Below are positions 1 to 51,669 of a stretch of 64,000 nucleotides of DNA, piece by piece. Made by a program: the position numbers and the translations under genes. Source of the DNA: Patescibacteria group bacterium (GTDB lineage Bacteria; Patescibacteriota; Doudnabacteria; UBA920; O2-02-FULL-48-8); the NCBI GenBank assembly GCA_036278915.1, contig DASUKB010000004.1, forward strand, positions 73,441-137,440, given 5' to 3'. How positions within the stretch are numbered: the first letter of the stretch is position 1; the number at the start of each line of letters is the position of its first letter. The notes under the pieces are model-generated. The model was given only the letters and a program-made list of their open reading frames with translations. It was not told where the DNA came from and ran no database searches.

Positions 1-496
1 CGCGGGCAATTTTGCTGGCAAATTTTTCCTCACCGAACTCCCGAAACAGTTCTGCCAATTTTGGCTCCGCGTAGGTATTGATGATTCTCTCCGCGGTAAG
101 TTCCTGGCCTTGGTCAAACCGCATATCAAGCACAGCTTCTTGCTGAAACGATAACCCGCGGGTCGGTTCATCCAACTGCGAAGATGAGAATCCGAGATCT
201 AAGATGACGGCTGTTGCCTGCTTAAAACCCTGGTCAGCTGCGATTCGTTTGATTTCTTTAAAGTTCCCTTGAGCCAATTTCACCCTTTGGCTCAAGTCCT
301 CTTGGACAAGCCGCATAGAAAGCTTGCCCAAAGAGACCTGGTCCAAATCAATTCCCAAAATCCGCGATTTTGGTTTTAGATGTGCTAATGCCAATATATA
401 CCCGCCGTCTCCAGCCGTGCCGTCGATGTAATTGCCATCTGCACTTTCGCGCAGAAAATCCAAAACTTCTTCTAAAAGGACGGGGACATGAGCCAT
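1..496 (-). CDS. rsmH: 16S rRNA (cytosine1402-N4)-methyltransferase RsmH (MraW), C-terminus outside window
   Basis: The minus-strand translation from the ATG at 494-496 reads MAHVPVLLEEVLDFL...GTAGDGGYI, the typical RsmH N-terminus with its SAM-binding motif. It lies immediately downstream of mraZ, the canonical mraZ-rsmH order. The reading frame runs off the window edge. Confidence 0.8.
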   Translation of the reverse strand, partial: MAHVPVLLEEVLDFLRESADGNYIDGTAGDGGYILALAHLKPKSRILGIDLDQVSLGKLSMRLVQEDLSQRVKLAQGNFKEIKRIAADQGFKQATAVILDLGFSSSQLDEPTRGLSFQQEAVLDMRFDQGQELTAERIINTYAEPKLAELFREFGEEKFASKIAR

Positions 497-552
497 AAAT
501 TTCTAACAACCGCCGTCAGGCGGGCGGGGTCAATTAGGTTAATTAGAAATTT

Positions 553-1766: not shown

Positions 1767-2350
1767 TTTTTACTTTTATCCACGATCACGGCCGGGCTGT
1801 TCTCCAGAATATTTTTGATAAACCGGTCGTTCATGGTCCTCCGGTATTCAAACTCGGCCGTCGTAAAAACGGAGTAGCTGATTTCCTGCTCGGCAAACCG
1901 TTCGGCGAGTTTGATAAATTGCGAAAGTTTACGCGGCGAAACCCGCCCAACAAACAAAACATCTGTCTCAACACGCGGCTTGCCCCCAAACACGCCAGTG
2001 AAAACAATAAGCTTGCATTCCCCGACTTTCTGCGCGGCGCGCGCCAAGAGATCCGCGGGGTAGGCCTTATTTTTATGAAGCAGGTTCAAAAGTTCGGGAT
2101 ACAGTGCAAAGTGCTTGTTGACCTGAAAATATTTTCGGCGATTTTTTTCTCCTACTGCCAAGAATTCCATCTTGGAAAGTTCGCGTAGAGTTTTTTTCAA
2201 AAACTGGCTTGAGATGCCGGTGGACACGCGCAGCTCGGTAGCCGAAAAGCTCCGTTGCGGATGGGCCAAGAACAAATTGATAAGTTTGCTTTTGGGTTTG
2301 GATGCGAGAAGTTGTGCTAGCATGGCAATATTATACCACAAGTCGCACAA
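1751..2350 (-). CDS. hypothetical protein, possible winged-helix regulator
   Basis: 199-aa ORF with an HTH-like N-terminal segment (FSATELRVSTGISSQFLKKTLRELSKMEFL). It is divergent from the 2412 gene. The start may instead be the internal M at 2323. Confidence 0.45.
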   Translation of the reverse strand: MCDLWYNIAMLAQLLASKPKSKLINLFLAHPQRSFSATELRVSTGISSQFLKKTLRELSKMEFLAVGEKNRRKYFQVNKHFALYPELLNLLHKNKAYPADLLARAAQKVGECKLIVFTGVFGGKPRVETDVLFVGRVSPRKLSQFIKLAERFAEQEISYSVFTTAEFEYRRTMNDRFIKNILENSPAVIVDKSKNWLKV

Positions 2351-2411
2351 ATCTCATACCTGGGTCCTTGTGCAAAATCCGTTAATTTGTGGTATAATAT
2401 CTGAGCGAATT

Positions 2412-4418
2412 ATGGCCCGATTGGAAACACAAATAAATCAAATTTACTACCTGCCTGATGATAAGCGGGTTGCTCTTATACTGACGGAAGAGACCTTCGG
2501 CAGTAACTCCCACCTCTTTTTCATCGCGGACCTGGTCCGGATCGCCAAGCGAACAGAAAAATCCGACCTGGAAAAAATTTCTGAAATTATCCTGGGTATT
2601 TTCCGCGACAACAAAAAATTATCTGGCGAGGCTCTGTTTGAGTCTTCTCTAGCTGAAATAAATCAGCGACTGGCCGACTTTGCCCACGCGGGCAAAAAAA
2701 CATGGCTCGGTAAATTTTCCGCGGCCCTGGTGCTCAAACACGGCGAAAATATCTGTCTTGCAAACACCGGGCAAATGTCAGCCATGCTTTATCGCAATGA
2801 CGCATTTTTGGAAGTTCTGCCTGCGGAAAAACTGGGTCTGCATCCGCTTAAAATTTTCTCTAACTTCACCACTGGCAAGCTTAAAGCCTCCGACGTCCTG
2901 CTTTTGACCACGTCCAATCTCTTCAATTATCTGGCTCTTTCAAATCTGGCAGGAATGCTGTCATCCGCCGCTCCGGACCAAGTCGCCCAGGACGCGGCTG
3001 GCATTTTAAAAGACACTGCCGCAGCAGACGAAGGATTTGCTTCATTCTTTATTACAATGTCCAAAGCCCAAGCTCCAGCGGGTGTCGTCGTTCCCAAAGA
3101 AGAAAAAGAAAAACCCAAACCAGCAATTGTGGCACCTGAACCCGAGCCCTTGCCTTCGAAAGAACAAGCAAGCCCTGTGATTCCTCTGGCAGAAGAAGAG
3201 ATTTATGCGCCGCTGCCTGGAAGCACTAAACCGTCTCCACGCTTCTCGCCGCCCTCTTTGCCCAAAATTTCTTTTGGCAAGCTCAAAAAATTCCACCTAC
3301 CAAAAATTTCCTTTAGATTTCCGAAGCTTTCGTTTTGGGAACATCTGTCCACCTGGGCTAAATTTTTCCTCGTCAGTTTTATAATCTTTCTATTGCTGTT
3401 TGCATCCAACATAATTGCCTATAGCATTCGCAAACACCGGCAAGATAACACTTCACAGGCCCAAGCCGCGGTAGATGCTTTGACCAAGGATCTAAGTGAC
3501 GCAGAGTCATCGCTTATCTACCGCGACCAAACCAGTGCCCTGAATTTGCTTGCCAAAACCAACAATGATCTCAATGCTCTCAAGGACCTGGATCCAGACG
3601 CTTACAACCAATACCAGCCGCAGGTCGCCGATTTGTCCAGCCGCATCAACCATATCACTGTGGTCTCAAGTCCGCAGGTGCTGGTCACCCTCAAACATCC
3701 GGCCACAAATATTGCGCGGGCAGGCGCAGGTTTCTATATTGCCGACTCGAGCACTGGCACAATCTCAACCTATAATACTTCCAGCACTGACAAGTCGGGA
3801 AAAGAACTGTTTCTCCTCAACCAAATCGGACAAATCCAAGGTCTGGTATTCATTCCGAATGTCGGCGGCGTAGTTATCACCGCCTCAGAGATGTACGTAG
3901 TCGACACGGCGCAAAGCCAGTTTGATCTCCTGCATATCTATCCTAAAACAAGCCTCGATGGCCTGCGTTTCGTCAACCCCGACCAGCTCTATACATTGGA
4001 CAAGGCCGCAGGCCAGGCTGACCAAATCCAATTTTCTAAAAGCGAGCAGATTGATCCGGTGCCGCTGCTTAAATCAAAAATTGACTTAACCGATATTGTA
4101 GATATCGGCGCGGACTCTGATATCTACCTTCTGTCTCCCACTGATCTTGCCAAATATACCAAAGGTGCTTTAAATAGTAATTTCCAGCTGCAACAGCCCA
4201 CGGATAAACTTACCTCCGCCAATAAATTATTTGTCGCTGGCAATATTTATATTTTGGAATCTGCAAAGAAGCGTTTGCTTATATACAACAAACAAGGCCA
4301 ATTGCAAACGCAAATTTTCTTCCCGAACGCCACTGATCTGCGAGATTTCTACGTTGACGAATCCTCGCGGAACATTTTCCTGCTTGACTCGGACAAAATC
4401 GAATCAATCACCTTCTAG
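2412..4418 (+). CDS. membrane-anchored protein with a degenerate PP2C-like N-terminal domain, a Pro-rich linker, one TM helix and a large extracytoplasmic domain
   Basis: Start chosen at MARLETQ (ATG 2412), downstream of an extended -10 (TGgTATAAT, 2390-2398). The N-domain has PP2C-like motif remnants (ANTGQMSAML; DVLLLTTSNLFNYL) with the catalytic Asp positions substituted. It is followed by a PEPEPLP linker, a TM helix (FLVSFIIFLLLFASNIIAY) and about 330 extracellular residues. Confidence 0.5.
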   Translation: MARLETQINQIYYLPDDKRVALILTEETFGSNSHLFFIADLVRIAKRTEKSDLEKISEIILGIFRDNKKLSGEALFESSLAEINQRLADFAHAGKKTWLGKFSAALVLKHGENICLANTGQMSAMLYRNDAFLEVLPAEKLGLHPLKIFSNFTTGKLKASDVLLLTTSNLFNYLALSNLAGMLSSAAPDQVAQDAAGILKDTAAADEGFASFFITMSKAQAPAGVVVPKEEKEKPKPAIVAPEPEPLPSKEQASPVIPLAEEEIYAPLPGSTKPSPRFSPPSLPKISFGKLKKFHLPKISFRFPKLSFWEHLSTWAKFFLVSFIIFLLLFASNIIAYSIRKHRQDNTSQAQAAVDALTKDLSDAESSLIYRDQTSALNLLAKTNNDLNALKDLDPDAYNQYQPQVADLSSRINHITVVSSPQVLVTLKHPATNIARAGAGFYIADSSTGTISTYNTSSTDKSGKELFLLNQIGQIQGLVFIPNVGGVVITASEMYVVDTAQSQFDLLHIYPKTSLDGLRFVNPDQLYTLDKAAGQADQIQFSKSEQIDPVPLLKSKIDLTDIVDIGADSDIYLLSPTDLAKYTKGALNSNFQLQQPTDKLTSANKLFVAGNIYILESAKKRLLIYNKQGQLQTQIFFPNATDLRDFYVDESSRNIFLLDSDKIESITF

Positions 4419-4435: not shown

Positions 4436-4472
4436 ACAAAAAAACCGCCTTTTACAAAAGCGGTTTTTTATT
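4436..4472. terminator. bidirectional rho-independent terminator
   Basis: Hairpin aaaaaaccgcc-ttttacaaaa-ggcggtttttt flanked by A and T runs, downstream of the 2412..4418 gene. Confidence 0.6.
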
Positions 4473-4621
4473 TGATCTTTTTACTTTTAACTTCAAGCTT
4501 CTAGCTTAAACCCTCATCTGTCCCCACCACCGCAAAGCCAAAACGCTTGCGCGCGTTATGACGACCGAAGCGATTATCCCCAGCAAACCTAATTTTAAAA
4601 TATTTTGAAAAATTCGTTCGG

Positions 4622-6304
4622 TCATTTTGATTGCGTGGTTGTTTGAGCCGGCGTCGAACTGGCTCCAAAATTCACCAAATCGGGGTTAATAGTCCGAAGG
4701 AGGATGTACGCACCAAACAGCAGGATAAGTCCGACGACTGCCGAAGTGATATATTTTTTACCGCGGCTGGCTCGATCGGCATTGCCTGCCGAGGTCATAG
4801 TGATATAGCCTCCGACAATTATCATAAGCACGGCCAGAATTGCGGCCACACTCAAGGACCACGTATAAACCTTACTAACTGAAACCCGGATAGGACCAAG
4901 ATCTATAGTCCCCGCAGTCTGAGGCGGATTTGCTGGAGGATTTTTTGTTATAACCTCGCCCAGCCCAACATGGCTTGTAGCCGCGATATGGTCATAGTTG
5001 ACGCTTCCCAAAGTCACAGCCCCGGAACCGGTAACCGCCACTGCTGCATTATAAGTTCCGCAATTGCCGTCATTGCACGCAGGAGCAATAGTTAAATTGC
5101 TGTCATACACAAGTCCGGTATAGTCTAGCTCTGACAAGTCTGCGCCGCCTTCCCAATCCTGCGCTTCCAGAAAAAATGTATTCGTCGCAGGATTATAATT
5201 TAGAACAGGCGCGCCGTAACCGCCGGAGGATGTCACTGTCTGGCCAGAGTTGATGGTCATAACCGGAAATTCCGGCCCGAGTGAACCATCGCTTTGGATA
5301 TTTCGGCCCCAAATCCCTCCGTTTGAGCCATCGCGTCCGCGCTCCATCCACACGGCAACCGCAGTTTTATCCACGGGATCATAAGCTATTTGCGAATTGG
5401 AAAACGCGTTTCGCCCAACCCGGGTCTGGCTCAACTGGACGGGTGCGCCTATTAATTCACCGGTTTTGGCGTTGATGCGCTGCAACATGACCCGGTCATC
5501 CTCATTGGCTGTGTCAGAACCGCTTAAAAGCGCCACATAGGTGGCCAAGTATTCATCGTTGTTTGTATCCACGGCAACACTGCTGAAAATATCTTGAAAA
5601 TCATTGCTGCCAAAATATATAACTTTCGGGTCAACCTTGCCATTTTCGTCCACAAGGTCAATTTCCGGATGATTAAACCCGCGCAATATCAGATATTTGT
5701 CATTTACGGGATCAAACGTTACTCCGGCCAAAAGGGCCACTGAAGTGCTCACCACGAACTCATTTCCCAAAGGCTGCCCTGTGCCGGAAACAAAGCGCGC
5801 GTAAGTTGATCGGCCATTCGTGGTTGGACGTTCGTCTTCCCAAGCGACCAAAAATTTGTCAGCGGCCGAATTATAAATGGCTTTGGGCGTACCGCGAAAC
5901 ATACCGCTGGCTTGGTCAATTTGAAAAGCAGACCCGAGAGGCGCTAGCGTTTCAGGATCTGCCATAACACCCCTAATGTGGACATTTTCGGAAGATCCCG
6001 TGGCTGAATCTGAAGCCACAACCAACAGTTGATTATGTATATCCGAATATGACGCGTCCAAGCCCCAGGTGCCGGACAGAGGAAACGTTGAAGGATCGGC
6101 TGGGTTGGTGCCGGGCGCGTAGGTTTTACCTGTCTGATGGTTGTTGTACCAATCCAGACAATTCAACATCGCCGCCGTGTCCGTGGGCCACGGATCGCAA
6201 ACTGGAGCGGTTTGCGCTTGAACCAGGCTAACAGGTCCTAAAACTAGCAATAATATTGCGGCAAAATTTACAAATTTGTAAATTTTTATCCTAATGGTAT
6301 TCAT
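4622..6304 (-). CDS. large secreted protein with C-terminal two-helix T4SS-pilin-like (VirB2/TrbC-like) domain
   Basis: N-terminal signal peptide MNTIRIKIYKFVNFAAILLLVLGPVSLVQA. The C-terminal about 80 aa (VYTWSLSVAAILAVLMIIVGGYITMTSAGNADRASRGKKYITSAVVGLILLFGAYILLRTINPDLVNF) are two hydrophobic helices separated by a short polar loop. This domain is paralogous to the C-terminus of the 51232..51669 protein. It is the last gene of a four-gene minus-strand operon and overlaps the 6291 gene. Confidence 0.6.
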   Translation of the reverse strand: MNTIRIKIYKFVNFAAILLLVLGPVSLVQAQTAPVCDPWPTDTAAMLNCLDWYNNHQTGKTYAPGTNPADPSTFPLSGTWGLDASYSDIHNQLLVVASDSATGSSENVHIRGVMADPETLAPLGSAFQIDQASGMFRGTPKAIYNSAADKFLVAWEDERPTTNGRSTYARFVSGTGQPLGNEFVVSTSVALLAGVTFDPVNDKYLILRGFNHPEIDLVDENGKVDPKVIYFGSNDFQDIFSSVAVDTNNDEYLATYVALLSGSDTANEDDRVMLQRINAKTGELIGAPVQLSQTRVGRNAFSNSQIAYDPVDKTAVAVWMERGRDGSNGGIWGRNIQSDGSLGPEFPVMTINSGQTVTSSGGYGAPVLNYNPATNTFFLEAQDWEGGADLSELDYTGLVYDSNLTIAPACNDGNCGTYNAAVAVTGSGAVTLGSVNYDHIAATSHVGLGEVITKNPPANPPQTAGTIDLGPIRVSVSKVYTWSLSVAAILAVLMIIVGGYITMTSAGNADRASRGKKYITSAVVGLILLFGAYILLRTINPDLVNFGASSTPAQTTTQSK

Positions 6305-6926
6305 CTTTGCATGGGCCGATGTAGCGGTTTACTTCGGCGTTAAAGATAGCCACACAATAAACCTGGCCCGTATCGCTATCGCGTAAATTTACCCACGGAC
6401 TGCCCAGGCCATCATTGATCGCTGTGTTGGCGCTGGCAATGCTTTGGACTGCGGATATCGAAGCTTGCGCTCCATTGGCATCTGCCACTGGATTTTTATG
6501 ATCTCCAGCAGGAATTATATTATCAATCGGCGGTTCCTGCATGAAATTCGCCGGTATTTGAAATGTCGGCACAACGGCCACCGCAGGTTGATTAATTTTC
6601 GCAGGCGTTAGAAGCTGCGCGAATTCATGTATCATACTGTTTCCAATATACGCCACGCCGCTTTCGGTTGGCGCTGGAGTCAGAGCAACAATTACTGCAT
6701 CCGCAGACTCTTGATAAAATTCATTGACTGAAGACACTATTAGATTCACTTCGCCAAACCACGGCCGATCACCTATGACCTCAAGCGTAGCCACTTGGAA
6801 CTGGTGTTTGACGGACTGCTGGAACTGCGCGACGTCTGAATTTCTAGCGGGCTGCAGCACAAAAGCCGCCGCTAAAAGCAACACGGCGGATAGTGAATAA
6901 AAAAGCTGTTCAGTCCAGTGTCTCAT
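6291..6926 (-). CDS. hypothetical secreted/membrane-anchored protein (paralog of the 6923..7423 protein)
   Basis: N-terminal hydrophobic anchor. Shares the motif V.S(V)NEFYQESA with the upstream gene. Overlapping start/stop couples it translationally to its neighbours. Confidence 0.5.
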   Translation of the reverse strand: MRHWTEQLFYSLSAVLLLAAAFVLQPARNSDVAQFQQSVKHQFQVATLEVIGDRPWFGEVNLIVSSVNEFYQESADAVIVALTPAPTESGVAYIGNSMIHEFAQLLTPAKINQPAVAVVPTFQIPANFMQEPPIDNIIPAGDHKNPVADANGAQASISAVQSIASANTAINDGLGSPWVNLRDSDTGQVYCVAIFNAEVNRYIGPCKDEYH

Positions 6927-7423
6927 TTGCGTATCGACGCGCCAGCCACGCGAGATGACAATTCCGGCGAGTAGGCCGGTTTATAAAAACTTGAAAGATC
7001 CAAAACCTGAGCCAGCTGCTGGGACGCAACGTTATAAAAATTGTTAACGCCGGAAATGGCCAGCATCGGTCCTGGGACGTTTGATCCGTCAAGCAGCTGC
7101 GCCATCGCTATTGCAGACTGATTGTAAAATTCTTGTACAGATACGACAGTGAACTCAACCGGAGTAGCGGCAACCTTAAGATCTGAAACCATGGAAGTAA
7201 TGCCGGACGAAACGTCTAGCACCGAGGCTCCAGCCTGCCAATCTTTGGGCGTGGCGTTCAAAACCAGAGCCGATTCGGCAAATAAAAATACAGCCAAAAC
7301 TATGCCCAATATATATGCAGGATACTTTTTGGCTGCTTTTGGCTTGGAATTTTTTCGCGCGGATTTGTTTGTTTTTGTCCTGCGAACCTGTTTTGTCTTT
7401 TTGTTTTTGATTTTGGTTTTCAT
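6923..7423 (-). CDS. hypothetical Lys-rich membrane-anchored protein (paralog of the 6291..6926 protein)
   Basis: Lys/Arg-rich N-terminus, one TM helix, then two copies of a V.EFY/NFY...SA motif (VVSVQEFYNQSAIAMAQLL; ISGVNNFYNVASQQLAQVL). Confidence 0.5.
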   Translation of the reverse strand: MKTKIKNKKTKQVRRTKTNKSARKNSKPKAAKKYPAYILGIVLAVFLFAESALVLNATPKDWQAGASVLDVSSGITSMVSDLKVAATPVEFTVVSVQEFYNQSAIAMAQLLDGSNVPGPMLAISGVNNFYNVASQQLAQVLDLSSFYKPAYSPELSSRVAGASIRK

Positions 7424-7425
7424 TG

Positions 7426-7929
7426 CTACTGGCCCATTTTCAAAATGCTTGGTGCATGATAGTAGTATTCCTTTTGGAAATATTTCGGAGTTGTCGTCTG
7501 AACCTGGTTTACTACGGCTTGCGTTTCGTGTGTGCTTATGAACGCACCTAAGACCTGACCCAAATCCGCTTGCGGTGCAGTATTGGCTCGCGCATAAGAA
7601 ACCCCGACGCTGTCGGCATAGTTCCCTATCGCATCGGCAAGCCTAATGGTTGTCGTGCCGACGGAGTCCGGATAGCTGAAAATTTGAGTGAAAGCAACGT
7701 CAAAATCATCGTAGAAAGTCTGGAACGAACCATACGCTAGTCCCAACTGCGATGAAGTCTGTGCCACGTTCTGACGCAAGTCAAAAATTTCCAAAGCCTT
7801 GGAAACCTGTGTCTGGGTACGGACCGGAAGGCTCATATACATTTGTATGCCTATAAGGACAAGCCCAGCCGCCGCGACTATAATCGTGCAGACTTCAAAA
7901 CCGGTTAGTTTGTTGTAGTTTGTTTTCAA
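7426..7929 (-). CDS. prepilin-like protein (type IV pilin-like N-terminus)
   Basis: N-terminus MKTNYNKLTGFEVCTIIVAAAGLVLIGI has a short basic leader, Gly-Phe, then about 20 hydrophobic residues, as in class III (prepilin) signals. The Glu is at +2 rather than +5. It is the first gene of the 7929->4622 operon. Confidence 0.4.
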   Translation of the reverse strand: MKTNYNKLTGFEVCTIIVAAAGLVLIGIQMYMSLPVRTQTQVSKALEIFDLRQNVAQTSSQLGLAYGSFQTFYDDFDVAFTQIFSYPDSVGTTTIRLADAIGNYADSVGVSYARANTAPQADLGQVLGAFISTHETQAVVNQVQTTTPKYFQKEYYYHAPSILKMGQ

Positions 7930-8163
7930 AAACGCAACAAGCCAAAAAAGCTTTTGGCTTCCTTCCTGTTATAAATTGTTGTTTGTTTCTTTTGAATTTG
8001 CAGCACTTTTGGTTTGATTTTGAACCAAAAGCAACTTTATCTGTACTTATTATAGCATATATTCCTCCAACGCGCAAGACCTCCGGAAAAATTTACAAAG
8101 TCTTGCAGTCGAAGTCCCTACTTCGTATGAGTATCAAAAAAATAAAAGGTCGGAGTGGCTATA

Positions 8164-41473: not shown

Positions 41474-42778
41474 ATGAAATTCTTTCGACCCCGAATCAAA
41501 AAAATAGAATTCAACACCAAAAGACAAATCATCACAAGTATTGGTCTGGCCGCGCTTTTGTGCGGCATGGTCGCAGTCACCGGGTACATGAACTTTCACT
41601 CTAAAGCCGCAGTTGAAACAGACGGCAACTGGCATGACTGCAATGGCGCCGTAGACAATGACCCAGCGCATCACAGCAGCGACGTAAACGATGCGGATCC
41701 CGCGCACCACATGGGCCAGGTCTGCAATGGAAACCAAGAAGCTTGGGGCAAAACTCCGACAACTTCCGACACTGCCAAAACAACTGATACGGTAAGTTCG
41801 GCAGATTCCACAGAAATCACCGGACCGCAAATCCCAGCAGCAATTGCCGAATCCATAATGCGCGCTCAATCTGTAATTGCAAACACGATCCAACCTGCAT
41901 CTGCGAACGATCCGTTTGGAGGAGCCAAACTCTACATCAACCCGAACAACGATCCTTCAAATTATGTTCGGCAAAACAATGGCAACTCAAACGCCAAGCT
42001 TATGGAAAAAATCGCAAGCCAACCGGAAGTGGAATGGCTAGGCAACTGGAACTCAAATATTTCCGGTGACGTAGCCAATATGATGAACACAATAGATAGT
42101 CAAGGCGCGCTTCCCGTATTCGTCGTCTACGACATTCCCTTCCGCGACTGCGGCGGCTACTCTGCGGGCGGCGTCAATGATGCGTCATCTTACCACAACT
42201 GGATTTCGCAAATAGCCAATACAATTGGCGCCCGCAAAGCCGTAATTATATTAGAACCGGATGCAGTGACTCTTACCGATTGTCTGTCTGTTTCGCAGAA
42301 ATCTGATCGCAACGCAATGCTCACCGATGCGGTCAAACAATTCAAATCGCAGGGCAATACTGCAGTCTACATCGACGCCGGCCACCCGGACTGGATTGCG
42401 CCCGCAGACCTCGCCGCTCGGCTCAAGGCTGCCGGAGAAGATATGGCCGACGGATTTGCGCTGAACATTGCCAACTTCTACACCAACGACCAGAACGCCG
42501 CGTACGGCAAACAAATTTCCGACCTGCTCGGAGGCAAACACTTTATCGTCGACACAGGACGCAGTGGATCCGGCCCGGCATCAGGCGATGCCTGGTGTAA
42601 CCCTTCCGGCCGATCCCTGGGCACCCCGCCCACCACCAACACCGGTAATTCGCTTATAGACGCATACCTTTGGGTCAAAGGTCCCGGCGGTTCCGACGGC
42701 AACTGCAACGGCGGCCCGTCAGCCGGCCAATTCTGGCCCGACTACGCGCTTGGCTTGGCACAGAGAACGAATTGGTAA
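41474..42778 (+). CDS. glycoside hydrolase family 6 (cellulase / cellobiohydrolase-like)
   Basis: GH6 catalytic-region motif VFVVYDIPFRDCGG (compare V.YDLPDRDCAA) and C-terminal DAYLWVKGPGGSDGNC (compare DAF.WVKPGGE.DG). Signal/anchor at the N-terminus. GC-rich. Confidence 0.75.
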   Translation: MKFFRPRIKKIEFNTKRQIITSIGLAALLCGMVAVTGYMNFHSKAAVETDGNWHDCNGAVDNDPAHHSSDVNDADPAHHMGQVCNGNQEAWGKTPTTSDTAKTTDTVSSADSTEITGPQIPAAIAESIMRAQSVIANTIQPASANDPFGGAKLYINPNNDPSNYVRQNNGNSNAKLMEKIASQPEVEWLGNWNSNISGDVANMMNTIDSQGALPVFVVYDIPFRDCGGYSAGGVNDASSYHNWISQIANTIGARKAVIILEPDAVTLTDCLSVSQKSDRNAMLTDAVKQFKSQGNTAVYIDAGHPDWIAPADLAARLKAAGEDMADGFALNIANFYTNDQNAAYGKQISDLLGGKHFIVDTGRSGSGPASGDAWCNPSGRSLGTPPTTNTGNSLIDAYLWVKGPGGSDGNCNGGPSAGQFWPDYALGLAQRTNW

Positions 42779-42824
42779 TTTAGACTTTTACTCCGGCGTA
42801 TAAAGCCCAAAAGTAAGTAAAAGA

Positions 42825-42855
42825 AAACTCCTCGACAAAACTTCGAGGAGTTTTA
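42825..42855 (+). terminator. rho-independent terminator downstream of the GH6 gene
   Basis: aaaactcctcgacaaaacttcgaggagtttt. Confidence 0.6.
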
Positions 42856-43094
42856 AATTATGTGAATCAATGATATTTTATACAACCTTTTTGATCTTGG
42901 CTTTGGTTTCAATGCGTCCGCACGAAAGAGGTCTTGGTTTCTGCGACACTCGGAAAAAATTCGTCGGAATTCGAAGCGAGCCGGAAGGTTGCAGCCGAGA
43001 GTTCGAAAAAATCTTCGCAACCAATAAGCGAAAGCGAGCTAAGAATTCCGGAATTTTTTCCCGTGTCGCAATTTTTCTGCCGCGATCGCGGCAA

Positions 43095-44252
43095 TTAACT
43101 ATTTATCCATAACCACATGGCAAACCAGTGCCATGACTGGGCATAAAAATCCGTATCCGGGAACTTAAGTGTATCGCCCACAAAATAATATTTATTCACG
43201 ACCTGATTGGCAAGTGTCGGATTGTTGATCGCAAAAATCCCGATTGGCGCAGCCAGTGTGCTGGTTGTAGAATGGTCGCAAGTATTATTTCCGTTCTGAT
43301 ACAAATACAACGCGCAGGTCTGTCCCCGTGACTGCCAATCGGAAGCAAAACTTCCAGCCGAAGACAGATACAGTTTTGCCGCATCGCTTGGTGAATTTTG
43401 AAAATCGAAAGCTACCCGCCAAAACACCCGAAACGCGTCGTACCCGAAATCCTGCGACTGCGGTTTGTCGGCATAAGGCAGAATCGTGCCATCGATTTTG
43501 CGCACCGCTACCCAGTTCGGGGGCACAAATGGCTGTGAACTGCCGTGCTCGGAAACTTGTGTCAGTAAATTGTACCCATCTGTTATGAGCTTGCTCCAGT
43601 CGTGGCCTTTGTCATACTGCGCAAACAGACGATACGCCTGAGGCGAAAAGTAGGACGGATCCACCACCAGCTGGTCCGGCTGATTGGCCCAGTTGCCGGC
43701 AATTACCAATCTTTTGCCTGCAGCCTCCCCCGTTTCTTTGTCCCAAATGTCTGCGGCTACATCTGTTCCTTCTTTAATGTAATCATCATTGTGCCAGTTG
43801 CTTCCTGCCAAAAGCAAAGCGTAAGCATAATCCGTGTCCGCATCTGTAGCTGAATTTTGGTCCAGCACGCGCGTATGGCCGTCCGTGCCCACATCAAACT
43901 GCCACGAAAGCAAGTGGTCGTTGGGACGAGCTAAATTACTTTCCGTCCATGCCAAAACTTCAGCAAAGGTTTTACTATCACCTGCCCAAAAAGATTGCAG
44001 TAGCGCATAAGCTTGAGATTCCGAATTGTAGTTTTTGGAACCCTGCGCAAAACCTTGCGCGTATTGCGGCTTGAGACACTGTTCGTAAAATTTGATAAGT
44101 GCTTTTTTGGCGTCGGGTTTATCGGGAAGATTTGAGGCGGACGGATTTGTATTCTGCTGGCAAGATACTTGCAGCGGATTTCTTCGCGAATACAAAATCA
44201 ACGCTGCACCGGCCAAAATGATAAGTCCGACGGCAAAAACTTTTAGTTTCAT
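43095..44252 (-). CDS. glycoside hydrolase family 8 (endo-beta-1,4-glucanase / BcsZ-like)
   Basis: ATDADTDYAYALLLAGSNW is a near-perfect match to the GH8 PROSITE pattern, and SESQAYALLQS is the catalytic Glu region. A signal anchor is present. Confidence 0.7.
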   Translation of the reverse strand: MKLKVFAVGLIILAGAALILYSRRNPLQVSCQQNTNPSASNLPDKPDAKKALIKFYEQCLKPQYAQGFAQGSKNYNSESQAYALLQSFWAGDSKTFAEVLAWTESNLARPNDHLLSWQFDVGTDGHTRVLDQNSATDADTDYAYALLLAGSNWHNDDYIKEGTDVAADIWDKETGEAAGKRLVIAGNWANQPDQLVVDPSYFSPQAYRLFAQYDKGHDWSKLITDGYNLLTQVSEHGSSQPFVPPNWVAVRKIDGTILPYADKPQSQDFGYDAFRVFWRVAFDFQNSPSDAAKLYLSSAGSFASDWQSRGQTCALYLYQNGNNTCDHSTTSTLAAPIGIFAINNPTLANQVVNKYYFVGDTLKFPDTDFYAQSWHWFAMWLWINS

Positions 44253-44256
44253 TTTA

Positions 44257-45981
44257 TTATTTTAATCCTACGGTTGGTTTCGTTTGAATTTTAGCATAAA
44301 TATCGCTTGGGTCCCACCAGGAGATCTGCGGATTTATAGACGGAATCTGCGAGGCGTCCAGTCCATGAGCTGCAGCCATGTCCATTACTTTGGCATCATC
44401 AATTTTATAAATACGGCGAATGGGATTTTGCATGACCAAATCATAATACTGCGTAAGTTCGGGGTTTTTCCCCCACTTGACCATAATCTCATCGTTTTGC
44501 TCAGACCAAGCGTCGTTGTCGTCTGGATTATGCATAACTATGTAACGGGCAAACAGCCACGGCTCGGTATCGGCCTGGTCAAAATATTTATAGTTGCCTT
44601 CGTAAATATAATTTGAAAGCGGTACATGAGCCTGCGAAAGAATCGGATCATTGTCGGCTTTAGTCAACAGGATTTTTCCATAATCATAGTTGTTGGCAAG
44701 ATACTGCATAGCCTCCACCTGCCCTGGCAGGGGCGAGTTGATGTCGTCCTTAATGACGCTGAATTTTTGCGCAACCACGACCTGGTACGACTGGTAGACG
44801 CCGAGCCCCAAAAGCGCCACGGCCAAAACAACGCGCACGGAATTCGCTATCCAGCCCATCCACCTGCGGTTGGATCGACTGAAATAATATGCAACGGCGC
44901 TTATGAGAAGCACGGGCACCAGAATCGTAAATCCAATCCAGGTCAGGCTGTAGCGTTCGTTTGAGAAAAAATTATATGGCGGGAGGTTTGCCACCAGCAC
45001 CGAACCCGTGCCCGTGACCAAAGTCATAAGCACAAACACAAATGGGCTGGCCAGCACGGTCAAAATTGCCATGGACCGAAATTTTTTGCCTGAAAGCACG
45101 GCAAATACAACTAAACTTCCAACCGACACCCACACCAGCGGCTTGGATAGCATATAGAATGATGAGTACACCAGATATTTAACCGACATTAGAACATTGC
45201 CCTTGGTGAAAGCCGTAGCGTTGCCAGAATTTTTAATCCAACTGCCGCCGGTGAATGCCAAAGGACTCCCGCCAAAAACCCAACTGTAAATGAAAATTGC
45301 CACAAGTCCTAAACACGCCGGAATCAAAAACAACAGCAGTACCGCTTCTTTCTCGGAATAATTTTTCCGTTTGCGCGTCAGCTGGATAAATATAATCAAC
45401 GATACTAATGGAATGAGGATTAGTCCTTCAAACCGCGACAAACATGTAAGCGTAACGAACACGCCGGTTAAAACCAGCCATTTAAGCTTCTGTTCTGCAA
45501 GCCACTCGGCCAAAAAATATGCAGTGCCAAATAAATTCGCTAAAAACAAAACTTCCATCATTGGCGTCACGCTGAAATACAAAATATAAGGATTGACGAC
45601 CAAAAGCAGCGCCGCAACAAAACTTAAAAATTTATCGTTCGTATAAAGATACGCAAGCCTATATAAGAATACCGCTGCCACCATAAGCGCAGGAATTAGC
45701 ACCACAGCGCCTGCCCCGCCGGACTGGTAAAGGCTCGTGATAAGCGTAAACGGCATCATCAAAATATGCAGCAGGGGCGGCCAGAATCCGATCTGCGAAA
45801 TTCCGGGAGTCATGCTGTCGAACACGAGCCTCGATGCATCCAAATGCGCGTTCTGGTCAGTCAAAAATTTTACCAGGCCCAAATTTTGGACCCAGGCATA
45901 CATCGCCAGGCCAAATAGGCCTGTGATGATCACGAGCGCAAGTTCTATTTTAGGTTTCTGTTTGGGGAAGTTTGATTGCAT
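44257..45981 (-). CDS. polytopic membrane protein, possible GT-C-fold glycosyltransferase
   Basis: 574 aa with 12 or more TM helices and loops bearing acidic motifs. It is co-directional with, and overlaps, the GT2 gene. Confidence 0.4.
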   Translation of the reverse strand: MQSNFPKQKPKIELALVIITGLFGLAMYAWVQNLGLVKFLTDQNAHLDASRLVFDSMTPGISQIGFWPPLLHILMMPFTLITSLYQSGGAGAVVLIPALMVAAVFLYRLAYLYTNDKFLSFVAALLLVVNPYILYFSVTPMMEVLFLANLFGTAYFLAEWLAEQKLKWLVLTGVFVTLTCLSRFEGLILIPLVSLIIFIQLTRKRKNYSEKEAVLLLFLIPACLGLVAIFIYSWVFGGSPLAFTGGSWIKNSGNATAFTKGNVLMSVKYLVYSSFYMLSKPLVWVSVGSLVVFAVLSGKKFRSMAILTVLASPFVFVLMTLVTGTGSVLVANLPPYNFFSNERYSLTWIGFTILVPVLLISAVAYYFSRSNRRWMGWIANSVRVVLAVALLGLGVYQSYQVVVAQKFSVIKDDINSPLPGQVEAMQYLANNYDYGKILLTKADNDPILSQAHVPLSNYIYEGNYKYFDQADTEPWLFARYIVMHNPDDNDAWSEQNDEIMVKWGKNPELTQYYDLVMQNPIRRIYKIDDAKVMDMAAAHGLDASQIPSINPQISWWDPSDIYAKIQTKPTVGLK

Positions 45982-48145
45982 AAGTTTCTAAAGTCTCCTC
46001 TTTGGCTGCGAGGTGTTTGCCATGCACGGTCTTGGACCAGTGGTGCGGCGAGTACATAAATTCCGCGGCAGCGCGCACAGACGCCACAGCCAGCAAAATC
46101 CAGTATAACGGCGACAGCAGGCCGTATTTGACCGCGTTGTATCTCCCGCGCTGATAACTTGAGACGAGGTTAAGATAAACGAAGATTATATTGCCCGCAG
46201 CAAACGAGATTAATGACGTATAAAATATCGGACTTGGGAACAGCGACTGTATGAGGTGCGAATGCGTGGCAAACCATCCAACAAGCAATCCCCAGTACAC
46301 GAGGTTGGCAATGTTGATTACCACCGAAGCCGGCACCGTGATCGCAAATGCAAACAGCCCCGCCCAACCGATCCCAACTTCACGCTTAAATCGTAAAGGA
46401 TGTCGCAAGTGCACGATCGAAGTTTGGATAAAGCCCTTAATCCAGCGCGTGCGCTGCGCAACCCACGGATAGATCGAAGTCGTCGCCTCTTCGCGGCTCA
46501 CAGAATCCAAAATTTCCACTTTTTTGCCGGCGCGCGCAAGCTTGATTCCTGTATCCGCATCTTCGGTAACGTTGTATGGATCCCAAGCGCCAATGTCCTC
46601 AAGCGCGGATTTGCGGAAGTGCACGCTGTGACCGGAAAGCGGAATCGGATAGCCGAGTTTTTGCAAACCAGGCAAAAGCATATCAAAATGGAATGCGAAT
46701 TCTTCGTTGAACAGACGTGTAATCAAACTTTGCTCCGGATTGTAATGGTCGAGCCTGGTCTGCAGCGCATCCACTTGCGGAAATTTCTGAAATGCCAAAT
46801 ATGCTTTCTTAAGCTGGTCAGCATCGGGTATGATCTCCGCATCGTAAATGACGAGGAATTCCCCATGCACCTGCGGGAACGCCACATTCAGAGCTTTCGG
46901 TTTGGTCTTGGGCTGCACGTCGGGCAAAATTAGCGTTCGGAAATGCGCGGGCGGATTGGCGTCGGCAATGGCTTCTATAGTTTCCGTATCATACTCCTCA
47001 AGCGTGATTATAATTTCCAATTTCTCCGTGGGATAGTCAATCGCACTCATAGCGGTGATAATTTGGCGGATCACGGCTGCCTCTTTGTACAAAGGCACAA
47101 GTATCGTGTACATGGGCAAATCATAAGGATTAACCGATTCTATTTCTTCCGGGGAAATATCCAAAAATTTTTGGGTCGTCGCATGGTAGATTACGCGCAA
47201 TTTAAAGGCCATCATCACCACGTAAAACACGGCCATAATTCCCGAAATTATTACAAGCGACGAAATTCCAGTCAGCCGGTGCAGGCCGTAAATTGTGGCA
47301 GACAAGACGAACAAAATCGTCAAAACCAAACTTACTGTCTCCAAATACAACGTACGCTTGGCGCTCATAATCTGCGGCGTATACACAAAATCCCAATTAT
47401 TGTTCCAGTTATTCCCCAGCCGCTCGCTTGGGTGCGGGTATTCCAGAAATTTTAAAATTCCAAACAGGAAATATTTGAATCTAAGCTTCAATGCGCCAAA
47501 TCCCAGTTCCAGTCCGGTACTCAAAACGCTTACGTTGGACTTGCCGTGCATGCGGCCGGTAAATTGTATGTCGGTCTGCGCAATCCTCCAGCCCAGACGT
47601 TTGGCCTTAAACAGGAAGTCATAATCGAAACCCCAAGCGGAAGGCTTGAGCCGAACGCTTGCACAGACTTGCTTGCGGAAAACTTTAAGCCCGGACTGTA
47701 CGTCATACGGCAATCCCAAAAGCATCCGGCCAAAGAAAAATTTATATATTTTGCTGGAAATTTTACGGAAATTCCCGGCATCCGCGAATTGGCGGTTGCC
47801 GACCACGATATCTGCATCGGTAAGCTGTAATACCATTTGCGGTATGGCTTCGGGCGGATATTGCAAGTCCGCGTCAATCATAGCAATGATTTCACCTTTG
47901 GACTCCACAATGCCCTCCAGAAGCGACGTCGCTTTGCCTCGCGCGCCTTGTTTGGTGAGCAGACGGATATGCTCACGCGGGTATTTGGATTTAAGCGCGC
48001 GCAAAAATTTGGCCGTACCATCCGTCGAATGATCGTCGACAAAAATGAGCTCATGCGCAAGCCCGATCAGCGATTGGGCCAAACGATCGACGAGTGAGGC
48101 AAGGTTGTCCTCTTCGTTGTAAGTGGGGATGATTATTGAAAGCAT
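45950..48145 (-). CDS. dual-domain family-2 glycosyltransferase (N-terminal DPM1-like GT2 + TM region + processive GT2 with QxxRW)
   Basis: N-domain IIIPTYNEEDNL...IFVDDHSTDGT...IDADLQ. C-domain YTILVPLYKE...YDAE...TEDADTG...QRTRWIKG, which are the D, D, TED and QxxRW motifs of processive beta-glycan synthases. Multiple TM helices lie between and after the two domains. Confidence 0.75.
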   Translation of the reverse strand: MLSIIIPTYNEEDNLASLVDRLAQSLIGLAHELIFVDDHSTDGTAKFLRALKSKYPREHIRLLTKQGARGKATSLLEGIVESKGEIIAMIDADLQYPPEAIPQMVLQLTDADIVVGNRQFADAGNFRKISSKIYKFFFGRMLLGLPYDVQSGLKVFRKQVCASVRLKPSAWGFDYDFLFKAKRLGWRIAQTDIQFTGRMHGKSNVSVLSTGLELGFGALKLRFKYFLFGILKFLEYPHPSERLGNNWNNNWDFVYTPQIMSAKRTLYLETVSLVLTILFVLSATIYGLHRLTGISSLVIISGIMAVFYVVMMAFKLRVIYHATTQKFLDISPEEIESVNPYDLPMYTILVPLYKEAAVIRQIITAMSAIDYPTEKLEIIITLEEYDTETIEAIADANPPAHFRTLILPDVQPKTKPKALNVAFPQVHGEFLVIYDAEIIPDADQLKKAYLAFQKFPQVDALQTRLDHYNPEQSLITRLFNEEFAFHFDMLLPGLQKLGYPIPLSGHSVHFRKSALEDIGAWDPYNVTEDADTGIKLARAGKKVEILDSVSREEATTSIYPWVAQRTRWIKGFIQTSIVHLRHPLRFKREVGIGWAGLFAFAITVPASVVINIANLVYWGLLVGWFATHSHLIQSLFPSPIFYTSLISFAAGNIIFVYLNLVSSYQRGRYNAVKYGLLSPLYWILLAVASVRAAAEFMYSPHHWSKTVHGKHLAAKEETLETYAIKLPQTET

Positions 48146-49756: not shown

Positions 49757-51229
49757 TTACATTCCCAATTCTTTTTTCAGCAGCTCGTTTATCTTTTGCG
49801 GGTTGCCGCGACCACCCATTTCTTTCATTGTCTGGCCCACCAAGAAGCCAAGCGATTTCTCACCTTTGGTCTTAGCATCCTCAACACCTTTTGGATTGGC
49901 TTCAATGACTCTTTTGACTGCGGAAAGAAGTTCGCCCTCATTCGAGACCTGTTCCAGTCCCATGCTCTGCAAAAGATTGCTTGGATCTTCGCCTGTCTCA
50001 AACATTTTAGCAAAGACATCTTTTGCGCCAAGCTGGCTGACCTTTCCTTGACCAATGAGCTTGATGAGTTCTGCAAAATTTTCTTGCGTGATTTTTGAGT
50101 CGACCGGCAGAGTTCCATGCTCATTGAGTAAAGCCAAGAATTGGCCAATCGTCCAGTTGGCTGCCAGCTTTACCAATTTATTGCGATCTTGGCCTTTTTC
50201 GATCTCAAACCATTCGTCCAGTTCAGAAACAACCTGCTCAAAGTATTCGGAGAGCTCTTTGTAGTTAACCAAAATTTCCGCGTCTTTTTCGGCAATGCCA
50301 AACTGACTTACGAATCTCTCCTTTCGAGTATTTGGAAGTTCCGGCAATTCTCTTCGTAATTCTTCAATATGGTCTTTGGTAAAGTGCAGCATGGGCAAAT
50401 CCGGCTCCGGGAAGTAGCGGTAGTCCTGCGACTCTTCTTTGGAACGCTGCGAGACTGTAATAGCCTTGTCATCCACGAAGCCGCGAGTTTCGCTGGCTGG
50501 AACTTCGCCGCTGTCTAGGATTTCTGCCTGACGTTTGACTTCATACTCTATGGCGTTGGCCACGGCGCGGAACGAATTCATATTTTTGACTTCCACTTTG
50601 TATGCCGGAAGCTTAGATTCTCCAACTTTGCGAAGGCTTATATTGGCATCGCAGCGCAAGTGGCCCTTTTCCATGTCCGCATCCGACACGCCCAGGTACC
50701 TGGCGATTGACTGCAAATTTTGCAGATACGCTTTGGCTTCCTCGGATGTGCGCATATCCGGCTCGGACACGATTTCCAAAAGCGGCGTGCCCGCGCGGTT
50801 GTAGTCCACCAAACTGTAATTTTCCCCCGCCGGGTGCAAAAGTTTTCCAGCGTCCTCCTCTAGGTGTGCGCGTGTAATGCCAATTGTCCGCGTCTGGCCG
50901 TTTACTGTAAGCTGCATTTGCCCGCGGCCATTGAGCGGCATGTCAAACTGCGAAATCTGGTAGCCTTTCGGTAGGTCCGGATAAAAATAATTTTTGCGGT
51001 CAAATTTGCTGTACTCGGCAATTTCGCAATTGAGCGCCAACCCCACCATGAGCGCCTTGTGCACAGCCTCTTGGTTTATTACAGGCAGAGTGCCGGGATG
51101 GCCGGTGCAGACTTCGCAGATGTGCACGTTTGGCCGGTCTGCTTCGGCATTCGGGGACGCGCAAAACATTTTGCTCTTGGTTTTGAGCTGGATGTGGACC
51201 TCCAGGCCGATTATAGTCTCGTAAGTCAT
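49757..51229 (-). CDS. gatB: Asp/Glu-tRNA amidotransferase subunit B
   Basis: MTYETIIGLEVHIQLKTKSKMFC is the GatB N-terminus. It also has the helical and YqeY-like tail. Confidence 0.9.
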   Translation of the reverse strand: MTYETIIGLEVHIQLKTKSKMFCASPNAEADRPNVHICEVCTGHPGTLPVINQEAVHKALMVGLALNCEIAEYSKFDRKNYFYPDLPKGYQISQFDMPLNGRGQMQLTVNGQTRTIGITRAHLEEDAGKLLHPAGENYSLVDYNRAGTPLLEIVSEPDMRTSEEAKAYLQNLQSIARYLGVSDADMEKGHLRCDANISLRKVGESKLPAYKVEVKNMNSFRAVANAIEYEVKRQAEILDSGEVPASETRGFVDDKAITVSQRSKEESQDYRYFPEPDLPMLHFTKDHIEELRRELPELPNTRKERFVSQFGIAEKDAEILVNYKELSEYFEQVVSELDEWFEIEKGQDRNKLVKLAANWTIGQFLALLNEHGTLPVDSKITQENFAELIKLIGQGKVSQLGAKDVFAKMFETGEDPSNLLQSMGLEQVSNEGELLSAVKRVIEANPKGVEDAKTKGEKSLGFLVGQTMKEMGGRGNPQKINELLKKELGM

Positions 51230-51231
51230 AA

Positions 51232-51669
51232 TTAGTTGTGTGGGGGCGGCACAGTGGTATTGTCCGCGGGTTTGGCGCAGCTGTCGATATGGTTCACGCA
51301 GGAACTGCTGAAGTCCACAAGATCAGGATTTATAGTTTTAAGTAAAATATATGCGCCCAAAAGAAGAATCAACCCAATGACAGATGAAAATATGTACGAT
51401 CTGCCGCGCGTCGCCCTGTCCGCATTGCCCGCGGAAGTTAGAGTTATATAACCGCCCACGATAATCATAAGCACAGCCAGGACAGCAGCCACGGATATAG
51501 ACCAGACATAAACCTGGCTCACGCATGAAGTCAGCGCTTGGCCAGTGGAATTGGTGGTGGTTGTGGTGCCCGTATTGGTATCCGTACCGCAACTCGCGGC
51601 AAATGCCGGATGCGGCACAAACGACAGGGCAAAAAAGATAAGACCGAAACCGACAAGTTGGCGTTTCAT
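51232..51669 (-). CDS. small secreted protein with two-helix T4SS-pilin-like (VirB2/TrbC-like) C-terminal domain
   Basis: Signal peptide, Thr-rich linker (TNTGTTTTTNSTG), then VYVWSISVAAVLAVLMIIVGGYITLTSAGNADRATRGRSYIFSSVIGLILLLGAYILLKTINPDLVDF. This stretch is about 75% identical to the C-terminus of the 4622..6304 protein. It sits between gatA and gatB. Confidence 0.6.
   Translation of the reverse strand: MKRQLVGFGLIFFALSFVPHPAFAASCGTDTNTGTTTTTNSTGQALTSCVSQVYVWSISVAAVLAVLMIIVGGYITLTSAGNADRATRGRSYIFSSVIGLILLLGAYILLKTINPDLVDFSSSCVNHIDSCAKPADNTTVPPPHN

Follow-up and report, generated by a model that had tools for sequence, protein, structure and literature searches.

VirB2-like pilins of the PF18895 family are widespread in Patescibacteria, where their genes often occur in arrays (PMC12102498, PMC10633639). 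In Southlakia epibionticum, the one species tested, they are essential, and their function is not known (PMC10633639, PMC12857230, PMC11665869). A pilin gene lies near virB4 in 1135 of the 1948 Patescibacteria assemblies that encode both VirB4 and a VirB2-like pilin (PMC12102498), and no Patescibacteria pilin has been shown to polymerise into an extracellular filament in the literature covered (PMC12857230). The locus described here is located in a 64,000-nucleotide stretch of a Patescibacteria contig (DASUKB010000004.1, positions 73,441 to 137,440; hereafter the window) and consists of four minus-strand genes, g1 to g4. The product of g4 combines a predicted β-propeller with a C-terminal PF18895 hairpin, while g1, g2, and g3 encode three distantly paralogous membrane proteins. 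Tentatively, the operon is interpreted as encoding a lineage-specific, four-component complex for binding (adhesion) at the cell surface.

Hydropathy analysis of g4 reveals an N-terminal signal-peptide-like segment, an extracellular region of ~440 aa (close to the ~450 aa given, together with the signal peptide, in a first-pass annotation of this DNA), and two C-terminal hydrophobic helices (peaks at aa 484-502 and 518-536). The helices are connected by the loop ITMTSAGNADRASRGK, which contains three Lys/Arg residues; signal peptide and basic interhelix loop together correspond to the VirB2-type topology (hydropathy, charge). In the Pfam scan, aa 477-537 match T4SS_pilin (PF18895) with an E-value of 1.3e-7 and 32.0 bits, above the gathering score of 26.6, which bears out the pilin-like two-helix ending recognised in the first-pass annotation. 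The match to TrbC/VirB2 (PF04956) is sub-threshold (14.6 bits vs 27.9, E 0.038), an NCBIfam scan returned a weak match to the Mycoplasma ICE pilin-like family, and NCBI already labels the protein 'pilin'. Sequence searches of the PDB with profiles of g4 and of the pilin hairpin gave no match.

Compared with the PF18895 pilins of the same phylum (e.g., those of the Southlakia epibionticum and TM7x arrays), g4 has the same signal peptide, two hydrophobic helices, and short basic loop, and both its C-terminus and a free-standing 145-aa protein of the window score above the Pfam threshold. It differs by the propeller that precedes the hairpin, which results in a mature protein of 530 aa against a typical length of roughly 70-120 aa, and by its location: outside a pilin array, with no virB4 within 64 kb, and co-operonic with three unrelated bitopic proteins. 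TrbC/VirB2-type conjugative pilins (e.g., of the T-pilus and F-pilus) are extracted from the membrane into a filament. The g4 hairpin shares their helix-loop-helix membrane topology, but g4 carries a large N-terminal fusion, has no cyclisation or processing signal, and has no VirB machinery nearby. By sequence, g4 belongs to a known family (PF18895) but has an architecture that is new for it.

The propeller was recognised in an AlphaFold2 (AF2) model built on 10 sequences, with an overall predicted local distance difference test score (pLDDT) of 72. The region of aa 70-446 is all-beta in the model. Its 26 strands of at least three residues would fit seven blades of about four strands each, and a pLDDT of at least 85 is reached in 26 of the 38 ten-residue blocks of this core (range over the blocks 50-96); helices are placed at aa 470-504 and 509-539. 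The best Foldseek matches in the PDB are 7-bladed propellers, with Escherichia coli YncE (PDB ID: 3vgz) in the first place (E 3e-12, TM-target 0.73-0.75), followed by WD40 domains. In the model the propeller fold is clear, and the function is not transferable from the fold matches: g4 and YncE (PDB ID: 3vgz, 3vh0) are both exported bacterial propellers of the same predicted fold, but g4 is only 13-14% identical to YncE and WD40 proteins and shares no Pfam family with them. The repeat of g4, FLV.WED.R....Y.R.V...G.P.G..F, constitutes a family of its own, to which a small number of secreted proteins from other phyla (P0003, P0015-P0017) also belong.

Orthologues of g4 from related metagenomic loci (numbered L001 and upwards) range from 540 aa to at least 1218 aa. 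Their N-terminal region is modular, the Cys cap, propeller, and hairpin are constant, and the hairpin is the best-conserved part of the protein. Extra N-terminal modules absent from the window are present in L001 (10599-11290), in L004 (1222-1800), and at the g4 N-termini of L016, L017, L018, and L019. Among them are a ~200-aa Trp-rich domain with a Pro/Thr linker and IPT-like segments; L019 additionally has another propeller and a ~330-aa domain. No Pfam match was obtained for these modules.

The free-standing 145-aa pilin is encoded within the gatA-gatB operon, between gatA (51679-53133) and gatB (49757-51229), with spacers of 9 and 2 nt, respectively. This location suggests that a VirB2-like pilin is expressed constitutively along with an enzyme of translation fidelity. 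It contains the only other copy of the g4 C-terminal domain in the window, a recurrence already noticed in the first-pass annotation, and the two copies are 75% identical over 77 aa (BLASTP E 1e-37). Measured over the hairpin, identity is 79% between g4 and the pilin of its own genome vs 44-72% between g4 and orthologous g4 hairpins. At the DNA level, the two hairpins are 65% identical, with 29% identity at third codon positions and a longest identical run of 11 nt; synonymous sites are saturated, and recent gene conversion between the two genes is therefore ruled out. The likeness could have arisen by co-evolution for co-assembly or, alternatively, by an old domain swap specific to the lineage. 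As the g4 hairpin tracks the free-standing pilin, g4 may be incorporated with the 145-aa pilin into a T4SS-type (type IV secretion system) filament, as a minor subunit or at the tip, instead of being a static anchor.

The other three proteins contain exactly one hydrophobic segment each, located near the N-terminus (hydropathy), as expected from the membrane anchoring proposed earlier for g2 and g3; all three would be single-pass proteins with N-in/C-out topology. The first-pass annotation had described g2 and g3 as a pair of EFY-motif paralogues. Their relationship is supported by BLASTP (E 6e-4) and by hhalign (96.3% probability, E 1.6e-9, 72 columns), but they are not the only pair: g1 and g2 also reach 96.3% (E 1.9e-9, 50 columns), g1 and g3 38.7%, in each case with alignments from the related loci. 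When family hidden Markov models of g1, g2, and g3 were run against 1036 stop-to-stop open reading frames (ORFs) of the window, the matches were reciprocal and included only other members of the trio. From the hhalign and reciprocal matches it follows that g1, g2, and g3 are distant paralogues.

Common to the trio is a helical juxtamembrane domain with an x(V/I)NxFYxQ helix at its centre, in which the Phe and Tyr residues are invariant in g2 and g3 and the Phe in g1; a [QS]V[ALM]G[AV]x[IV] motif is located farther along in all three. In g1, the N-terminal decapeptide MKT[ND]YxNL..FE is conserved and accompanied by GQVLGA and a K.YYYHAPS tail; the start of the gene is confirmed by orthologues that begin with MKTNY. 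The N-terminal tail of g2 has 16 Lys/Arg residues among the 34 preceding the transmembrane helix, and its two xVNxFYxQ[AS] helices, with Phe99/Tyr100 and Phe129/Tyr130 invariant in 11 orthologues, are followed by a C-terminal P.VAGASI[RK].

Searches of Pfam, NCBIfam, and PHROGs with g1-g3 returned nothing significant, and a PDB sequence search with the g3 profile no match. The earlier statement that the locus has no recognisable characterised homologue thus stands for these three proteins but not for g4, whose hairpin belongs to PF18895. On the basis of these searches, the trio is taken to be an undescribed family. Among 1.84 billion representatives, the g3 family accounts for 94 clusters (50% identity), with lengths of about 70-260 aa except for its weakest match, the 391-aa S74-domain protein P0106; no relative was found in a first Joint Genome Institute (JGI) metagenome scan with the g3 profile. 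The g3 family is real but lineage-restricted.

The last 32 aa of g3 match the C-terminal module of giant, tail-fibre-like Peptidase_S74 proteins of Patescibacteria (hhalign 97.6%, E 3.3e-12), an E-value that is optimistic because the compared loci were retrieved with the same motif as pattern. A library-wide search with the g3 profile independently reached the S74 protein P0106 (E 8e-4). Homology of the whole g3 ectodomain to the post-S74 region was considered and rejected, as only the last 32 aa are supported and the longer P0106 alignment is marginal. A profile of the Cys-hairpin module found no match among PDB sequences. The giant surface proteins (L007-L012, P0106; 1400-2800 aa) contain GIGTTSPYA-type repeats and a Peptidase_S74 chaperone domain and end in the g3-type TGQVYC...G.C hairpin, followed by low-complexity S/T/P- or D/E-rich tails. 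Apart from this closing hairpin g3 is different: it has neither the S74 domain (PF13884; no Pfam match at E<=1) nor fibre repeats, and it is a membrane-anchored protein of 211 aa.

In their tandem arrangement, paralogy, predicted N-in/C-out single-pass topology, length (~170-210 aa), and helical juxtamembrane regions, g1-g3 also bear a works-like resemblance to PilN/PilO and GspL/GspM, and the short conserved cytoplasmic N-peptide of g1 is reminiscent of PilN. The resemblance goes no further: models of PilN, PilO, and GspM/T2SSM give no match to g1-g3 at E<=1, the predicted ectodomains are helical or disordered (g3 model pLDDT 43) rather than ferredoxin-like, and no PilM or ATPase partner is located near the operon.

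The ORF listing of the window confirms the four minus-strand genes at exactly the coordinates of the first-pass annotation (Table 1). Overlapping stops and starts had been described; g2 and g3 overlap by 4 nt (ATGA) and g3 and g4 by 14 nt, but g1 and g2 are separated by 2 nt. A 39-aa hydrophobic ORF (MTERIFQNILKLGLLGIIASVVITRASVLALRWWGQMRV; 4506-4625, minus strand) overlaps the g4 stop by ATGA and was considered as a fifth gene; none of the related loci contains a counterpart, and it is therefore probably not a gene.

Table 1. Coordinates of the four-gene operon, its signals, and the free-standing pilin. Nucleotide positions are those of the window; residue positions are those of the respective protein.
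Feature	Position (nt)	Position (aa)	Strand	Description
g1	7426..7929		-	167 aa, TTG start; one transmembrane helix at aa about 10-33, helical FY domain
g2	6923..7423		-	166 aa; Lys/Arg-rich, predicted cytoplasmic N-tail, one transmembrane helix
g3	6291..6926		-	211 aa; one N-terminal transmembrane helix, FQ/GDQP/NEFY helical domain, variable linker with VAG motif
g3 C-terminal module	6300-6395	178-209	-	W.N.RD..TGQVYCVAIFNAEVNRY.GPC; two invariant Cys
g4	4622..6304		-	560 aa; signal peptide, Cys-pair cap, propeller, linker, hairpin, tail
g4 predicted signal peptide		1-30	-	..SLVQA|QT; hydropathy peak aa 11-29
g4 Cys-pair cap		C36, C49
g4 predicted 7-bladed β-propeller	4967-6097	about 70-446	-	AF2 and Foldseek; followed by Pro-rich linker
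g4 VirB2-like helical hairpin	4667-4882	475-546	-	PF18895; followed by S/T-rich tail
Putative operon promoter	8049..8077		-	-35 TTGCGC 8077-8072, 17-nt spacer, extended -10 TGcTATAAT 8057-8049
5' leader stem-loop	8002..8036		-	A-rich 8-nt loop, then A-rich GAAACAAA(C)AACAA motif; single-sequence folds
Bulged GC-rich inverted repeat with T-run	4441..4472		.	read directly from sequence; between convergent g4 and gene 2172-4418
Free-standing pilin	51232..51669		-	145 aa, PF18895 (Pfam E 5.4e-7, 30.0 bits); paralogue of g4 hairpin

Upstream of g1, TGCTATAAT is invariant and preceded at 17 nt by a TTGACA-like -35 element in 6/6 aligned loci (interval from rplL to g1 or to HTH-g1). In the window this promoter was missed by a simple consensus scan because its -35 element matches only 3/6 positions. 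With this one conserved promoter before g1 and no promoter-like gap upstream of g4, the four genes would be transcribed as one mRNA. Upstream, the strong rplL terminator is located at 8189-8167. In L018 (about 160-202), a second promoter has the 23 nt upstream of TGCTATAAT nearly identical to those of the window g1 promoter (8049-8081) and is followed, as at g1 of the window, by a GAAACAAAAACAAAA leader; TGCTATAAT appears to be a general strong promoter form of the clade, used before several genes per locus.

Just downstream of the promoter, a stem-loop is found at the same position in 6/6 orthologous leaders (window, L001, L002, L005, L013, L019), with differing stem sequences and z-scores from -2.0 to -4.8, and the A-rich GAAACAAA motif after it is conserved. 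No consensus structure of the leader was obtained by RNAalifold on a MAFFT alignment, and the stem-loop is only suggestive of a functional element. The interval between leader and gene contains an AT-rich inverted repeat of 9 bp (AAGCCAAAAGCTTTTTTGGCTT; 7939-7960, both strands), which lies 10 nt ahead of the TTG start of g1. The scan calls it terminator-like, and it could occlude the ribosome-binding region of g1. At the other end, the bulged repeat is likely a bidirectional terminator that closes the operon against the convergent gene; it is absent from the output of the gapless scan because one arm has a 1-nt bulge.

Conservation of the block in relatives had been put forward as a check in the first-pass annotation, and the same gene order indeed recurs in at least 12 independent related loci from metagenomes or metagenome-assembled genomes (MAGs), two of which lack g4; it exceeds what chance would produce. 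The complete arrangement, i.e., rplJ-rplL, the promoter, g1-g2-g3-g4, and a convergent gene for a 630-750-aa protein, is present in the window, a JGI contig, L001, L004, L005, L013/14, and L015-L019. The closest named relative is a Candidatus Doudnabacteria MAG (L005), and the comparison of these sequences indicates that the operon is lineage-specific and chromosomally fixed in a Doudnabacteria-like clade of Patescibacteria (Candidate Phyla Radiation, CPR). Eight loci retain the coding overlap between g3 and g4, with a length of 11-17 nt (mostly 14 nt), even where protein identity has dropped to 28-32%. For the closer loci (L001, L002, L004, L005), identity to orthologues is 41-50% for g1-g4 and 59-91% for the flanking genes; such faster divergence of the operon genes would be expected if their products are exposed at the surface.

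The arrangement varies between loci. A small HTH_17 (excisionase/MerR-like) gene, absent from the window, is located between the promoter and g1 in L017 (4217-4489), L018 (about 3700-4100), and the JGI contig (6420-6656), and its product may be an operon-specific regulator. L019, the most divergent locus, has an additional gene for a 131-aa protein between g2 and g3 (2479-2874). Its product presumably resembles the four-helix-bundle '23S rRNA intervening sequence' family, and the insertion indicates that the operon tolerates insertions.

The remainder of the window mostly encodes housekeeping functions (MraZ, L10, L12, MltG/YceG, DnaE, ThrRS, GatA/GatB, ClpB, RecG, EF-Ts, S2, RF-1, and FtsW/RodA), together with two histidine kinases and a GH6/GH8/GT2 cluster. 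The cluster, at 41474-48145, consists of GH6 (41474-42778), GH8 (43095-44252), a PMT_2-like glycosyltransferase (44257-45981), and a double-GT2 protein (45950-48145); by its annotation it is a set for glycan synthesis and glycan cleavage, notable in a reduced genome. The convergent neighbour of the operon (2172-4418, plus strand) encodes a protein of ~630-750 aa with a mid-protein transmembrane helix and is located beside the operon in every long locus. It has a weak match to a 6-bladed propeller family (DUF5128, E 0.003). Its orthologues start with MARLETQ, which places the listed TTG start ~81 codons too early.

If the operon encodes a surface-binding complex, the following mechanism can be proposed. 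The strong extended -10 promoter would produce a single mRNA, on which the short or overlapping junctions would couple the translation of g2, g3, and g4. Exported by Sec, g4 would be cleaved after Val-Gln-Ala, and its VirB2-like hairpin would insert into the membrane; with the basic loop in the cytoplasm, the propeller would be displayed outside on its Pro-rich tether. The juxtamembrane FY domains of g1-g3 may come together as a hetero-oligomer, probably of three chains, to form a membrane-anchored stalk or platform on which g4 is docked or organised. To this, g3 would add its putatively disulfide-stapled hairpin module, the one also present at the ends of giant fibre-like surface proteins. 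The propeller and, in orthologues, the N-terminal add-ons would constitute the target-binding end, with a host or partner cell or a polymer as the target.

Several observations weigh against this interpretation. None of PilB, PilC, PilD, VirB4, VirD4, or other T4SS or type IV pilus genes was found in the window, among the 38 ORFs outside the operon. The trio is kept without an adjacent g4 in L002/L003 and L006, and it is therefore not strictly dependent on adjacent g4. Because all loci belong to a single clade with extended synteny, the conserved gene order is partly explained by shared ancestry. The fold matches of the propeller are generic (9-14% identity) and uninformative on the ligand, the within-genome likeness of the hairpins rests on one genome, and the AF2 model of g3, built on 7 sequences, is unreliable and was for that reason not used for fold search. 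Gene structure, domain content, paralogy, and the conservation of operon and promoter are established by the sequence comparisons, but the topology, complex formation among g1-g4, the adhesive role, and any link to a T4SS are inferred.

An alternative explanation, rather unlikely but to be reckoned with, is that the PF18895 hairpin is solely a two-helix membrane anchor of a surface propeller (an enzyme or a binding protein), never part of a filament and not connected to any T4SS, while g1-g3 form a separate envelope scaffold. This would agree with the lack of virB4, virD4, and other T4SS genes within 64 kb and with the vertically inherited position of the operon among housekeeping genes (rplJL, mltG, and the mraZ-dcw cluster); moreover, from the known structures of the F- and T-pilus, a 440-aa domain on each subunit is sterically unlikely in a VirB2-type helical polymer. 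The hairpin itself speaks for a different role, because a passive anchor would hardly be the best-conserved part of g4 and closer to the free pilin of the same genome than to its own orthologues. Since a pilin lies near virB4 in only 1135/1948 assemblies, the missing T4SS neighbourhood is weak evidence (PMC12102498). It is improbable that g1-g3 and g4 are syntenic but functionally unrelated, the trio taking part in another envelope process (e.g., division or cell wall work near the dcw cluster, of the FtsL/FtsB/DivIC or PilN/PilO type) and g4 being a neighbour kept by ancestry. Small bitopic helical proteins are often division or platform factors, and both the loci in which the trio persists without adjacent g4 and the long-range synteny within one clade could be explained in this way. 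However, the g3/g4 coding overlap has survived in eight loci across extensive divergence, the only conserved promoter is the one before g1, the cluster evolves much faster than its housekeeping neighbours, and models of FtsL, FtsB, DivIC, PilN, PilO, and GspM give no match at E<=1.

The first-pass annotation had read the N-terminus of g1 (KLTGFEV) as prepilin-type, and on this basis the operon would be a type IV pilus or pseudopilus module, with g1 as a PilD-processed prepilin, g2 and g3 as minor pilins, and g4 as a pilus-associated adhesin. Type IV pili are encoded by CPR bacteria (PMC6744442), and KLTG|FEV with the hydrophobic helix of g1 superficially resembles a class III signal peptide. 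The orthologues contradict this assignment: in seven of them, the position before Phe11 is occupied by G, K, A, A, R, S, or W instead of a conserved -1 glycine, an eighth (L019) has the Phe itself replaced (NLTGED), and the Glu occupies position +2 (F-E-V/A), not +5. The prepilin methylation models (Pfam N_methyl, NCBIfam TIGR02532) give no match to g1, g2, or g3 at E<=1, and g1 shows none of the testable defining features of a type IV prepilin with a class III signal peptide. With the 34-aa Lys-rich tail before the transmembrane helix of g2, the lack of a class III-type motif in g3, and no PilB, PilC, or PilD gene in the window, a pilus module of this kind is hardly credible. A bolder proposal, which is speculative and improbable, regards the VirB2-like hairpins of this clade as carriers that display large exchangeable binding domains: g1-g3 would be a dedicated, hitherto undescribed platform in the form of a hetero-trimeric helical stalk, by which the propeller-pilin and the 145-aa pilin would be assembled or extruded into an adhesive appendage independent of the classical T4SS gene neighbourhood.

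In this operon, a pilin hairpin is joined to a large propeller with variable add-ons, and the fusion is encoded together with three paralogous membrane proteins that belong to an undescribed family. For practical purposes the gain is modest and consists of a defined set of four proteins, and if the proteins are unrelated neighbours, the finding shrinks to the routine annotation of a PF18895 fusion and three hypothetical proteins. If the hairpins are carriers and the trio is their platform, the essential VirB2-like pilins of CPR bacteria would gain a concrete role in the presentation of adhesins. The locus thereby raises the testable idea that VirB2-like pilins may anchor or carry adhesins for cell-cell contact in ultrasmall epibionts.

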